A stretch of 64,000 nucleotides of DNA from Candidatus Limnocylindria bacterium (lineage in GTDB: Bacteria; Chloroflexota; Limnocylindria; QHBO01): contig DATBIY010000006.1 in the NCBI GenBank assembly GCA_036556695.1, positions 22,231 to 86,230 on the forward strand. Direction: 5' to 3'. Position numbers and translations under genes: made by a program. Below the pieces are notes generated by a model. It did not search any database. It worked only from the letters and a program-made list of their open reading frames with translations, and was not told where the DNA came from. Positions 56,241 to 61,705 of the stretch are shown here, piece by piece. Positions within the stretch are counted from its first letter, which is position 1. Every line of letters starts with the position of its first letter.

Positions 56241-57130
56241 CGGGACGCGCTGTCTGCGTCTGGCGTGCCAACCTCGGCCGCTCGGCGTTCAGGCGGCATC
56301 CAGCCATGGATCAGCTCGTCGTGGTAGCGAGGCATGCCGCCGGCCCTGGCAATGTCGCGGGGAATGGGAGCCATCGGTGCCTTGCTCTTCGCCGCCAGGA
56401 CGTAGTAGGCGCAGACGTCGGTCAGCGGGCAGAGCCCGCAGATCGGACGCGGCGCGCGGCAGGTGTCGCGGCCATGCCGGATGAGCTCCACGTGGAAGGG
56501 GTACATCTCGTCGGGCTGGAGCACCTCCTCCAGCAGGTCGTGGGCGCGCTCCAGCGGTGTGCGCGGCGGCAGCATGCCCAGGCGGCTGGCCACGCGGTGA
56601 ACGTGGGTGTCGACCGGCACCGCCGGTCGCCCGAAGCCGAACAGCAGGATGATCGAAGCGGTCTTGCGGCCGATGCCGGTCAGCGACACCAGCCAGGCCC
56701 GCGCCTCCTCGAGCGGCTGCGTCCCCAGGAAGCCCAGGTCCCAGGTGCCATTCGTCGCGGCGTGCACCTCGGCCAGGATGTGCTGGATGCGCTTCGACTT
56801 GGTCGGCGCCAGGCCGCCGGGGCGGATGACGTCCTCCAGCTCGTCCGTCGGCGCGGCCAGCACCTCCTCCCAGGTGGCGTAGCGGGCGCGGAGCGCGCTG
56901 AAGGCTCGGAACGAATTCGTGTCGGCAGTGTTCTGCGACAAGATGGTCAGCACCAGCTCGCTCACCGCATCGAGCCGCGGGCCCGCCCAGGTCGGGTGCT
57001 CATAGCGCTCCCCCAGCCGATCGAGCACCACGCCGGCCAGCGCGCGGCGCTTCCGACGGTCTGCGGCCCTCTTCTGCGGGCTTGGACCTCGCCGTCCGCC
57101 CCGCTTCTTCCCCTTGGTGGCGGCCGCCAT
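56237..57130 (-). CDS. nth: Endonuclease III family DNA glycosylase (HhH-GPD with a 4Fe-4S cluster)
   Basis: HhH-GPD motif (LVSLTGIGRKTASIILLFG...VDTHVHRV) and FCL Cys cluster Cx6Cx2Cx5C (CRAPRPICGLCPLTDVC). Basic N-terminal extension. Confidence 0.85.
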   Translation of the reverse strand: MAAATKGKKRGGRRGPSPQKRAADRRKRRALAGVVLDRLGERYEHPTWAGPRLDAVSELVLTILSQNTADTNSFRAFSALRARYATWEEVLAAPTDELEDVIRPGGLAPTKSKRIQHILAEVHAATNGTWDLGFLGTQPLEEARAWLVSLTGIGRKTASIILLFGFGRPAVPVDTHVHRVASRLGMLPPRTPLERAHDLLEEVLQPDEMYPFHVELIRHGRDTCRAPRPICGLCPLTDVCAYYVLAAKSKAPMAPIPRDIARAGGMPRYHDELIHGWMPPERRAAEVGTPDADSASR

Positions 57131-58311
57131 CAGCCGGAGCGCTCCGCCAGCCCGATCCCCAGCTCCAGGGTCCGCGCAACCCGCTCCGCGGCGTTGGCCA
57201 GCAGCCGCTCCGTGTCCTGCATGGCCTCATCCAGCGCCATGGGCCTGTCGCCGATGGGCTGCACCACCGCGAATGTGCCCGACGCATCGAGCGCGGCGGC
57301 TCCCGGGCCCAGCGCGCCACACAGCAGGATCACCGGCGAGTTCCGGCTGCGCGCCAGGCGGGCCACGCCCATGGCCGCCTTGCCGGACAGCGTCTGCTCG
57401 TCGGCGCGTCCCTCGCCGGTGATCACCAGGTCGGCCGATTCGAGCGCGTCGGCCAGGCCCACCAGCTCGGCCACGACCTCTACCCCGGGACGGACCTGCG
57501 CGCTGGTGAAGCCCAGCAACCCGGCCGTCGTGCCCCCGGCCGCGCCAGCGCCGGGGATGTCGGCCACGAAGCGGCCCTTGGCCGTCTCGATGGCCCCGCC
57601 CCACGCCGCCAGCGCGGCTTCCAGCTCCTCGACGGCTGCCGGGTCGGCGCCCTTCTGCGGCCCGTAGGTGGCTGCCGCACCGCTGGGCCCACACAGCAGG
57701 TTGGTCACGTCCGAGGCGATCGTCAGCCTCACTTCGGCCAGCCGTGGATCCAGTCCATCGGCTTCGACCTTCGCCAGCCCGGCGAGTGCCGCGCCACCCG
57801 GCTCCAATACCCGTCCCGCCGAATCGAGCAGCCGCAAACCCAGCGCCGCCAGCAGGCCGCTGCCACCGTCGGTTGTGGCGCTGCCGCCCAAGCCCAGCGT
57901 GATCTCCGTGGCACCGGCGTCCAAAGCGGCGCGCAGCAGATCCCCCGTCCCGCGGGTCGAGGCACGGCGCGCTGCGTCCGGGGTGCGCTCCTGGTGCGCC
58001 AGGCGGGACAGCCCGGAGGCCGCCGCCATCTCGATGAACGCGGTGCCGCCGCCCAGCTCCAGCCAGTCAGCCTCGATCGGACGGCCCAGCGGGTCGATGG
58101 TGCTCACCGTCCGCCGCTGCGCCCGCTCGCCGAGGGCCGCCTCCAGGGAGGCCAGCGTGCCCTCGCCGCCATCGGCCATGGGAGTCAGCCGGATCTCGTC
58201 CTGGGACCGGGCGCGTGACCACCCGGCGGCGATCGCCCGCGCCACGCCGACGGAGTCCAGCGACCCGCCGAACGAGTCGGGGGCGATGACCAGGCGGAGG
58301 GGGTCAGTCAC
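57130..58311 (-). CDS. glxK: Glycerate kinase
   Basis: GlxK/GarK family layout (LVIAPDSFGGSL...MADGGEGT...VITGEGR). Confidence 0.85.
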   Translation of the reverse strand: MTDPLRLVIAPDSFGGSLDSVGVARAIAAGWSRARSQDEIRLTPMADGGEGTLASLEAALGERAQRRTVSTIDPLGRPIEADWLELGGGTAFIEMAAASGLSRLAHQERTPDAARRASTRGTGDLLRAALDAGATEITLGLGGSATTDGGSGLLAALGLRLLDSAGRVLEPGGAALAGLAKVEADGLDPRLAEVRLTIASDVTNLLCGPSGAAATYGPQKGADPAAVEELEAALAAWGGAIETAKGRFVADIPGAGAAGGTTAGLLGFTSAQVRPGVEVVAELVGLADALESADLVITGEGRADEQTLSGKAAMGVARLARSRNSPVILLCGALGPGAAALDASGTFAVVQPIGDRPMALDEAMQDTERLLANAAERVARTLELGIGLAERSG

Positions 58312-60317: not shown

Positions 60318-61705
60318 CAGCCCGGCCGCTCCCCGGCGGCGCGCATCTCCTTCCAGCGCGTCACCAGGTACGGCTTCAGCTCCTCGAACTCGCGCGCCTG
60401 GGAGTCGATGACGCGCTCCGCCTGGTCCGTGGTCATCTCCAGCGTCTCGCCGATGAAGCCGGCTGTGCGAGCGAAGTACAGCGGCGTCAGCGCGGCCAAC
60501 AGCTGCTCACGATCGGCTCCGGGGCGGTGGAAGGCGACCATGGTGTCGTACAGGCAGCGGATCCACAGCTCGGCCGGGAAGTGGAAGGCAGGCGGCTCTG
60601 GCGGGATCTCCAGGGTCATGACCCGCTCCAGCTGCTCCGGGGCCAGCATCCCGTCCCACACCTGGCGCTGCGCCAGCCGGGCGGTGTCGAAGTTGTCGAT
60701 CAGCTTGGCGTGGTTGACGTCGATCATCTCCGGGGCGATGACCCGCTCGAATCCGTACTCCGGGATGGGGTGCGAGCCGCGGACCCGGAGCCATCGGTCC
60801 TCGTAGACCGCGGCCAGCCGGAAGAGCGTGCCGACCACCTGCCGAAACATCGGCCCAAGGTCGGAGGCTGGATCCTTGGCGTCGTGGATCTTTGCGCCCA
60901 GGCGTGCCTGGCAGACGGCGAAGCCCTCGTTGATGGCCGAGTGCGTCATCCAGATGTCGATCCCGAAGCGCGCCGTGAGCTCGTCGAAGGTGTCCAGCTC
61001 CAGGTAGCGCTCCACCAGGTCGCCCGATACCGCGAACTCACCACCGATGGGCTGCCGAATCCGCGCCCCGTACAGCGCCCGGGTCAGCGGGTAGGCGATG
61101 TTGTTGGTGATGGTGCCGTCGTACTTGAAGCGCGCGTACATGGGCGCCACGAAGTCGTAGCCGCCCTTGAGGATCGGCCCGGCCAGCAGCTCGATCCACT
61201 CCGGCGCGATGCTGCGCAGGTCGGAGTCGACCATCACGAAGGCCTTGACCTTCAGCTCGCGCGCCACCTCGAACAGGGCGCGCACCGCGGTGCCCTTCCC
61301 GCTGATGCCCTGGTAGGTGAAGCTGATGCGCTGCAGCTTGTGGCGCGGGCTGACCAGGATGATCTTCTCGATGTAGTCCGGGCTCTCGGTGCTGACCGCC
61401 ACCCGGGGCGTGTCATCCGGTGAGCCGCCGTCGCTGTTGACCATGATCGGCTTGAGATCCGGGAAGTACTGGACCATGCCTGCGGTGGCAGCGCGCACGA
61501 CGTAACCGATGGTCTCCGCGTTGCCGAAGCTGGGGATGCCGACCATCAGGTCGGCGCTTCCCACGCGCCGGACCTCGGCCAGCCCCTTGGCGTCGAGCGC
61601 CGATTCCGGCGGAGCTGGCGAGGTGGTCGTCACCGGCTTGCCTCCTGGAGCATCGAGCGTGGGGTTCGGGCTCGGGAAGGAAGCGTAGCACCGCCAGTGC
61701 CCCAC
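60317..61705 (-). CDS. GT-A-fold glycosyltransferase, paralogous partner of the upstream GpgS-like gene
   Basis: VGIPSFGNAETIG...MVNSDGGSPDDT...FVMVDSDLR indicates a nucleotide-sugar transferase fold. Stop/start overlap with the upstream gene. Confidence 0.6.
   Translation of the reverse strand: MGHWRCYASFPSPNPTLDAPGGKPVTTTSPAPPESALDAKGLAEVRRVGSADLMVGIPSFGNAETIGYVVRAATAGMVQYFPDLKPIMVNSDGGSPDDTPRVAVSTESPDYIEKIILVSPRHKLQRISFTYQGISGKGTAVRALFEVARELKVKAFVMVDSDLRSIAPEWIELLAGPILKGGYDFVAPMYARFKYDGTITNNIAYPLTRALYGARIRQPIGGEFAVSGDLVERYLELDTFDELTARFGIDIWMTHSAINEGFAVCQARLGAKIHDAKDPASDLGPMFRQVVGTLFRLAAVYEDRWLRVRGSHPIPEYGFERVIAPEMIDVNHAKLIDNFDTARLAQRQVWDGMLAPEQLERVMTLEIPPEPPAFHFPAELWIRCLYDTMVAFHRPGADREQLLAALTPLYFARTAGFIGETLEMTTDQAERVIDSQAREFEELKPYLVTRWKEMRAAGERPG

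Follow-up and report, generated by a model that had tools for sequence, protein, structure and literature searches.

It has been reported that two routes to the same solute can coexist in one organism: for glucosylglycerate (GG) in Persephonella marina, for mannosylglycerate (MG) in Rhodothermus marinus, and for mannosylglucosylglycerate (MGG) in Petrotoga mobilis (PMC3736172). Expression of the two MG routes of R. marinus responds to different stresses (PMC3736172). GG is hydrolysed after stress relief in the mycobacterium M. hassiacum (PMC5381378). The known control of compatible-solute synthesis is mostly transcriptional, and little has been learnt at the enzyme level about how bacteria turn it on within seconds of stress. 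The P. marina genes reportedly lie in one operon-like cluster. In this study, we analysed a 64,000-nucleotide stretch of DNA, hereafter the window, and found a trio of minus-strand genes encoding a fusion of two universal stress protein (USP) domains to a GpgS-type glycosyltransferase (GT), a second GT of GT-A fold, and a glycerate kinase. We think it fairly probable that this trio is a glycosylglycerate (glucosyl- or mannosyl-) solute module in which two entry routes share an acceptor node and the USP module sits only on the phosphorylating route. The genes and domains, including a linker of low predicted local distance difference test (pLDDT) score, are as follows.

57130-58311, minus strand: class I (GlxK/GarK-type) glycerate kinase, 393 aa, GTG start
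58365-60317, minus strand: USP-USP-GT81 fusion, 650 aa, whole open reading frame (two PF00582 matches, GpgS model, PDB matches, AlphaFold2 model)
59853-60296, minus strand: USP domain 1 of the fusion, aa 8-155, degenerate (PF00582, alignment, fold)
59448-59831, minus strand: USP domain 2, aa 163-290 (best PF00582 stretch)
59352-59447, minus strand: linker, aa 291-322, low-confidence helix (pLDDT <50 at residues 296-320)
58368-59351, minus strand: GT81 glycosyl-3-phosphoglycerate synthase domain, aa 323-650 (NF010496, PDB, Foldseek, catalytic residues)
60317-61633, minus strand: second GT-A enzyme, candidate single-step glycosylglycerate synthase of the MGS/Ggs-like kind, 438 aa (frame open to 61705)

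The first-pass annotation of this DNA had placed a glycerate kinase, a USP-USP-GpgS-like fusion and an overlapping second GT-A enzyme at 57130-61705. We found all three as intact minus-strand open reading frames (ORFs), with a third-position GC of 0.89-0.94 marking the coding frames against about 70% GC across the window. The genes at those coordinates stand; the upstream edge does not, as the second GT most likely begins at 61633, at a GTG 6 nt past a GGAGG Shine-Dalgarno sequence, and gene calls on other contigs agree with this start (438 aa). The TGA stop of the second GT and the ATG of the fusion share one base (TGATG). The strings quoted for the fusion, LPALNEEKTIG...DSDSEDRT, were located in the GT-A domain of the 650-aa ORF. 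The identical 650-aa protein occurs on seven contigs recorded from metagenome-assembled genomes of Limnocylindria, and the window was assigned to Candidatus Limnocylindria (Chloroflexota) on this basis. A search with the fusion scored 5724 homologues at E<=1e-10, some of which are not fusions themselves. Since the same protein lies on seven contigs, has thousands of homologues and recurs at conserved Limnocylindria loci, the USP-GpgS fusion is a real gene and not an artefact of assembly or gene calling. A promoter and terminator scan of the minus strand from 55 to 64 kb gave no signal above shuffled sequence.

The C-terminal domain of the fusion was compared with known enzyme families. The NCBIfam GpgS model NF010496 matched residues 327-639 with 382.5 bits against a cut-off of 262, and the next NCBIfam family for this domain, AglJ, reached 41 bits. 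Pfam read two Usp stretches followed by a GT2-type domain. The best PDB sequence matches were the mannosyl/glucosyl-3-phosphoglycerate synthase of Rubrobacter xylanophilus (3f1y, 7e-77) and the GpgS of M. hassiacum and M. tuberculosis (7p5l, 2e-65; 4y6n, 5e-61 to 6e-61), while dolichol-phosphate-mannose synthase matched at 8.9e-6 only. An AlphaFold2 model built on an alignment of 53 diverse homologues had a mean pLDDT of 85.8 and a predicted TM-score of 0.83, and its uncertain parts were loop insertions and the linker (residues 296-320). In a Foldseek search with the C-terminal domain of this model, GT81 structures aligned with a TM-score on the target (TMt) of 0.85-0.93, the R. xylanophilus MpgS giving 0.91-0.93. 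These results indicate that the domain is of the GT81 GpgS/MpgS type by sequence and predicted fold and not a polyprenol-phosphate GT2, and the GpgS-like assignment made earlier survived the comparison that its author had named as its refutation. The donor sugar cannot be read from similarity, because the R. xylanophilus enzyme, the nearest solved relative, takes both mannose and glucose donors.

It has been reported that Asp134, Lys114 and Glu232 form a network in M. tuberculosis GpgS, that Asp136 and His258 serve the metal, and that Val186/Thr187 hold the acceptor carboxylate (PMC2581804). The equivalents in the fusion are D450, K430, E545, D452, H571, V499 and T500, so that K430, D450-T-D452, R498-V499-T500 (within GGGRVTEL), E545 and H571 are all present. 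These residues are conserved in 38-49 of the 53 fusion representatives. Standalone GT81 proteins start at a W-F-x-x-x-T-F element, which in the fusion follows the linker; because they start just past the linker, the fusion reads as a complete GpgS preceded by two USP domains and roughly 30 linker residues. A minority of divergent USP-GpgS fusions (P0275, P0383 and others) lack part of the catalytic residues, with D452 kept in 43/53, H571 in 38/53 and K430 in 42/53, and some have no GT2 Pfam match on record. Such proteins may be pseudo-enzymes that keep the USP pair.

The second GT was only weakly GpgS-like by sequence (NF010496, 55 bits; PDB matches at about 4e-7). Its AlphaFold2 model had a pLDDT of 86.6, and the top eight Foldseek matches were all mannosylglycerate synthase (MGS) of R. 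marinus, including 2y4m and 2bo4, over 406-420 columns with a TMt of 0.72-0.78 and a TM-score on the query of 0.68. This match covers the GT-A domain together with the C-terminal helical domain, whereas GT81 structures align over about 285 columns with a TMt of 0.51-0.64. In the 438-aa numbering, the motifs are DGGS, G-K113-G, D136-x-D138, D172-G-T-I175-T176, D226 and H250. Its family conserves DGGS, GKG, DxD, Y-D-G-T-I-T, Q-P-I-G-G-(D/E)-F and L-G-(A/S)-K-x-H-x-x-K-D-P; I175, D136 and D138 are invariant, T176 is nearly so, and D226 and H250 are conserved in at least 90%. In MGS, Ile138-Thr139 is the site of the glycerate carboxylate and Asp192 belongs to the sugar-binding network (PMC2581804). 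A HMMER alignment with GpgS placed the I-T of the second GT on Val186-Thr187 of GpgS, which corresponds to Ile138-Thr139 of MGS. At the acidic position of its sugar-binding network, the second GT resembles MGS in having Asp and not Glu. A Thr stands at the position of the Arg in the GGGRVT loop of GpgS, a hint that the acceptor of the second GT may be one without a phosphate.

The Pfam MGS_GT model (PF21969) matched 6 of 21 aligned relatives and many family members of 414-430 aa, and part of the family carries the JGI label 'glucosylglycerate synthase'. When distant members were used for a profile search, every protein that came back had a generic name or none. The second GT is best read as a candidate single-step synthase of the mannosylglycerate/glucosylglycerate synthase (Ggs) kind. 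The MGS/Ggs-like family is widespread and mostly annotated as 'glycosyl transferase family 2': in a scan of species-representative genomes, at least 555 encoded a relative.

The scan yielded 80 loci that were kept, all from Limnocylindria and with 53-90% identity; synteny was counted only where the contig reaches far enough. USP1-USP2 followed the second GT at 77 of 77 loci and the GpgS domain came next at 67 of 68, and a glycerate kinase lay within 5.5 kb downstream of the fusion at all 54 loci that could be counted. A 171-aa GNAT acetyltransferase stands between fusion and kinase at 15 of the 80 loci, in Limnocylindrales (among them L052, 11320-11835; L064, L048, L079), and is absent from the window. 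This small gene had been considered as the missing phosphatase and was rejected upon its identification as an acetyltransferase. The link between fusion and kinase tolerates insertions, because some Limnocylindria genomes carry inserts of about 2 kb at this point (L018, 11352-12654; L021; L028); by eye, the L018 insert is an ECF sigma factor with a putative anti-sigma protein.

We also found that the two GTs are joined naturally in independent fusions. On three contigs, a 1061-aa triple fusion unites the second GT with the USP pair and GpgS. In this distant lineage it adjoins a HAD phosphatase scoring above the cut-off of TIGR02461, the model for mannosyl-3-phosphoglycerate phosphatase (248.7 against 244.35 bits), and also a MOFRL/DUF4147-type glycerate kinase that is non-homologous to the PF02595 kinase of the window. 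A recurrent family of 708-748 aa has no USP domains and carries GpgS either before or after the second GT (P0309, P0273, P0339, P0428-P0434, P0436, P0521), and a 730-aa fusion of this composition is followed by a phosphatase of the TIGR01486 MPGP family. The gene of another USP-GpgS protein, 53% identical, is flanked by those for a GT4 enzyme and a histidine phosphatase, stop and start codons of neighbours overlapping. Mycobacterial GpgP belongs to the broad histidine phosphatase family (PMC3240985). A phosphatase was thus seen beside distant fusions at three loci (L001, L013, L007). The link of the three genes to glycosylglycerate metabolism, proposed in the first-pass annotation, gained support from this conserved unit, from the natural fusion of its two GTs and from the MpgP-family phosphatase and MOFRL kinase beside them in a distant lineage. 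GT81 GpgS domains are also fused to GT4 on either side (P0286, 1383 aa; P0302, P0324, P0350, P0364), and one protein reads GT4-GpgS-GH13, the last part being alpha-amylase/sucrose-phosphorylase-like. Such arrangements suggest one-polypeptide pathways for di-hexosyl-glycerates or solute turnover.

The glycerate kinase scored 424 bits with PF02595 and 396 bits with TIGR00045 (cut-off 168), and its scores with the 2-kinase and 3-kinase equivalog models, 268 and 297 bits, were both under the cut-off. Because unrelated glycerate kinase families were recruited beside the same enzyme pair, the kinase appears to be part of the module, and this double recruitment is the strongest argument for it. The kinase had been thought to supply phosphoglycerate, a weak idea since central metabolism already provides 3-phosphoglycerate (3-PGA); more probably, it serves to partition or salvage glycerate. 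In two proteins (P0341, 893 aa; P0303, 418 aa), the fusion or the GpgS domain appears to read into glycerate-kinase sequence, and these could be real fusion-kinase proteins or artefacts of frameshift or gene calling.

Full-length USP-GpgS fusions make up about 43 of the top 150 clusters (50% identity), the most distant at about 30% identity, and one was labelled Dehalococcoidia. In a neighbour-joining tree of the GT domains, the nearest neighbour was fused for 35 of 44 fused sequences, with no clean clade, in part because many of the representatives are fragments. Databases automatically annotate the fusion as 'glucosyl-3-phosphoglycerate synthase' or 'universal stress protein'. The component enzymes are of known kinds, and our literature search found no paper on the USP-GpgS combination, in agreement with its earlier description as not a characterised enzyme.

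In the pathway that we propose, the GT81 domain of the fusion would use a nucleotide diphosphate (NDP)-hexose and 3-PGA to make hexosyl-3-phosphoglycerate, which an unlinked phosphatase would have to dephosphorylate. The upstream, translationally coupled MGS/Ggs-like enzyme would make hexosyl-glycerate directly from NDP-hexose and D-glycerate. The glycerate kinase would convert free D-glycerate to phosphoglycerate, partitioning the acceptor between the two routes, and would return glycerate released by solute breakdown to glycolysis and central metabolism. Gene structure, family membership by sequence and fold, catalytic residues, conserved arrangement and the independent fusions and neighbourhoods are what we observed; the activities are inferred. 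The sugar transferred could be glucose or mannose, and the product could act as an osmolyte or nitrogen-stress solute. A sensor-like domain on one route only suggests post-translational control of that route.

Several observations weigh against this proposal. In tblastn searches of the window and of the 80 Limnocylindria loci (to a distance of about 8 kb), no homologue of the MpgP/GpgP-HAD or histidine phosphatases was found, and the two-step route is therefore incomplete as seen. The second GT of the window itself did not match PF21969 at E<=0.01. The ligase-like gene and the Nth gene that flank the trio are unrelated DNA-repair genes and are syntenic too, so that conserved order alone is weak evidence. 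Fusions commonly join sequential, not parallel, enzymes. Finally, a USP pair that lacks the canonical ligand motif could have a purely structural role. As for turnover, no GG hydrolase, GG phosphorylase or phosphatase was seen in the window when the ORFs of high third-position GC were read by eye (no domain search) and tblastn was run. A GalU-type UTP-glucose-1-phosphate uridylyltransferase ORF, recognised by eye from its N-terminal motif, lies at 39380-40261 on the plus strand, 18 kb from the module, and is a possible source of donor sugar.

The tandem USP module bears on how the phosphorylating route might be controlled. It had been described as a pair of UspA nucleotide-binding domains that would place synthesis under direct stress or adenylate control, and a true sensor of adenine nucleotides (ATP, AMP or cAMP) gating GpgS by energy charge would indeed be in keeping with the Pfam Usp model, which matched both halves (PF00582, two stretches, 64.1 bits against a cut-off of 24), and with the fold. 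Foldseek with the N-terminal 300 residues returned the tandem USPs Rv2623, UspE/YdaA and PA1789 (3cis, 4r2j, 3mt0, 7mq5) with a TMt of 0.65-0.71, and Rv2623 binds ATP. ATP-binding USPs of the MJ0577/Rv2623 class carry a G-2x-G-9x-G(S/T) motif. However, a regular expression for the strict motif, run over the N-terminal 330 residues, found it neither in the window protein nor in any of 120 close homologues, and in only one (P0252) of 53 USP-fusion representatives spanning 32-91% identity; a near-motif stands in domain 1 of a few others (P0241, P0243). Domain 1 has Ala or Asn where the beta1 loop would carry its ribose-binding Asp, and the window protein has a 23-residue Ala-rich insertion inside the would-be phosphate (glycine) loop. 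In domain 2, the loop reads PVRGGPH where V-D-G-S is usual, with a conserved Arg at the position of the ribose-binding Asp (R170 in 48/53, G171 in 49/53, G172 in 51/53), and the glycine motif has lost its second glycine. A PDB sequence search with the USP half gave no significant match to any solved USP, so that only the fold search identifies the module; one relative matched faintly the USP-like C-terminal domain of CHX17 cation/H+ exchangers. These results argue against a canonical nucleotide sensor, and we hold adenylate gating to be very improbable; another ligand or a scaffolding role is possible, and the notion of stress gating goes back to the names of the domains. Most likely, the USP module is a regulatory and/or oligomerisation domain on the GT81 enzyme that binds non-canonically or binds nothing. 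A bolder idea, which we put forward tentatively and regard as somewhat unlikely, is that the pair forms a new module sensing a non-nucleotide ligand, with a pocket marked by Arg64 of domain 1, which is invariant, and the Arg-Gly-Gly-Pro loop, and that it would turn the phosphorylating route on or off by allostery, leaving the single-step route without regulation. Possible ligands are anionic metabolites, for example 3-PGA, glycerate, a second messenger or the solute that the pathway makes. If so, this would be the first compatible-solute GT with a built-in sensor and would offer a direct handle on post-translational gating of solute synthesis.

The products of the trio can also be read in other ways. 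The two GTs might act in sequence, with USP-GpgS making glucosyl-3-phosphoglycerate and the second GT adding a hexose to it or to glucosylglycerate, to give a di-hexosyl-glycerate (mannosylglucosylglycerate or diglucosylglycerate) as in the GpgS-MggA-MggB pathway. Enzymes of consecutive steps are typically coupled in translation and repeatedly fused, as these two GTs are, and because fusions usually join consecutive enzymes, this reading keeps some weight; the second GT-GpgS fusion followed by a single MPGP-family phosphatase also resembles the gpgS-mggA-mggB clusters (PMC3736172). However, the known MggA and MggS are GT4-type enzymes of GT-B fold and not GT-A (PMC3736172), and the second GT has the whole MGS architecture, in which the Ile-Thr site for the glycerate carboxylate faces the anomeric carbon of the donor (PMC2581804), as fits glycerate as the nucleophile. 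The label of glucosylglycerate synthase on part of its family points the same way, and we consider sequential action unlikely. Less probable again is that the product primes an intracellular polysaccharide or a glycolipid and is not a free solute, as glucosylglycerate does for mycobacterial methylglucose lipopolysaccharide (MGLP). The initiators of MGLP are among the closest characterised GpgS (PMC2674218), USP-GpgS fusions of other lineages adjoin GT4 enzymes, the second gene downstream of the trio in the window encodes an LCP glycopolymer transferase, and the GNAT gene of the 15 Limnocylindrales loci encodes an acyltransferase, which might act on the solute or an intermediate. Against these stand the MpgP-family phosphatase and glycerate kinase neighbours of distant loci, which fit solute turnover, and the window and the fetched loci, where no GH57 or GT4 elongation enzyme, methyltransferase or OctT-type acyltransferase was found next to the trio; the LCP gene may be a mere syntenic neighbour, like Nth. 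The two-route solute module is the reading that we favour, and a primer role seems quite remote.

The trio lies within six minus-strand genes at 55284-62459, which overlap or leave only short gaps all the way from the ligase-like ORF through the LCP gene. The three flanking genes are as follows.

55284-56240, minus strand: LCP-family glycopolymer transferase, two genes downstream of the trio
56237-57130, minus strand: Nth-like DNA glycosylase
61734-62459, minus strand: ligase-like protein, 241 aa

The window encodes two short proteins that resemble the adenylation domain of ATP-dependent DNA ligases, the one just listed and another of 228 aa at 29467-30153 on the minus strand. In place of motif I (E-x-K-x-D-G-x-R), one has FEPAWKGER and one FEPWWPGIR, with the catalytic Lys missing, and they may be inactive ligase paralogues. 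The gene of the 241-aa protein immediately precedes the GT pair and keeps this place in most Limnocylindria loci; that of the 228-aa protein adjoins Ku (30160-31068) near a full-length ligase (33552-35348), Ku and ligase being recognised by eye. Elsewhere in the window, a TPP riboswitch at 16515-16618 on the minus strand (67 bits against a gathering cut-off of 54) lies upstream of a thiamine pyrophosphokinase-like gene followed by the S, A-A and T components of an ECF transporter (12925-16469), as read by eye without a domain search.

Limnocylindria are abundant, uncultured Chloroflexota of soil and freshwater, and a conserved module of this kind bears on their tolerance of drying or nitrogen limitation. 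USP-GpgS proteins occur in dozens of clusters at 50% identity, in Limnocylindria and at least in Dehalococcoidia. A GpgS with its own conserved sensor-like module, coupled or fused to a single-step synthase, is a testable entry point to the direct regulation of solute synthesis.

Among known enzymes, the R. xylanophilus MpgS/GpgS (GT81; 3f1y, 3kia, 3o3p) was the best match to the C-terminal 330 residues of the fusion, with an rmsd of about 2 A, and shares with it the W-F-x-x-x-T-F element, the DxD, the GGGRVT acceptor loop and the His. Unlike the fusion, it is a standalone protein of 387 aa without a USP module. The GT domain of the fusion is about 40-45% identical to mycobacterial GpgS (Rv1208 and the M. 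hassiacum enzyme; GT81), which has no sensor domain. The product of mycobacterial GpgS primes MGLP and its partner phosphatase is the histidine phosphatase Rv2419c (PMC3240985), whereas no such gene is linked here. The USP module shares the two-USP pseudo-dimer fold of Rv2623 of M. tuberculosis, UspE/YdaA and PA1789 with no similarity at the sequence level; Rv2623 binds its ATP through G-2x-G-9x-G(S/T), while the module of the window lacks this motif and is covalently joined to an enzyme. R. marinus MGS (GT78; 2bo4, 2y4m) was the best structural match to the second GT and has the Ile-Thr site and the equivalent of Asp192 in common with it, but the two are only 17-18% identical, and by sequence the second GT is nearer to GT81. 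The closest parallels to the whole locus are P. marina, with Ggs and GpgS/GpgP, and R. marinus, with MGS and MpgS/MpgP, where a single-step synthase that takes D-glycerate stands beside a phosphorylating route as we propose here (PMC3736172). Rv1208 is about 24% identical to P. marina GpgS (PMC2674218). Compared with these dual routes, the locus of the window differs in three ways: it has a tandem USP module on the phosphorylating enzyme, a glycerate kinase where the others have their phosphatase, and a GpgS of the actinobacterial GT81 type.

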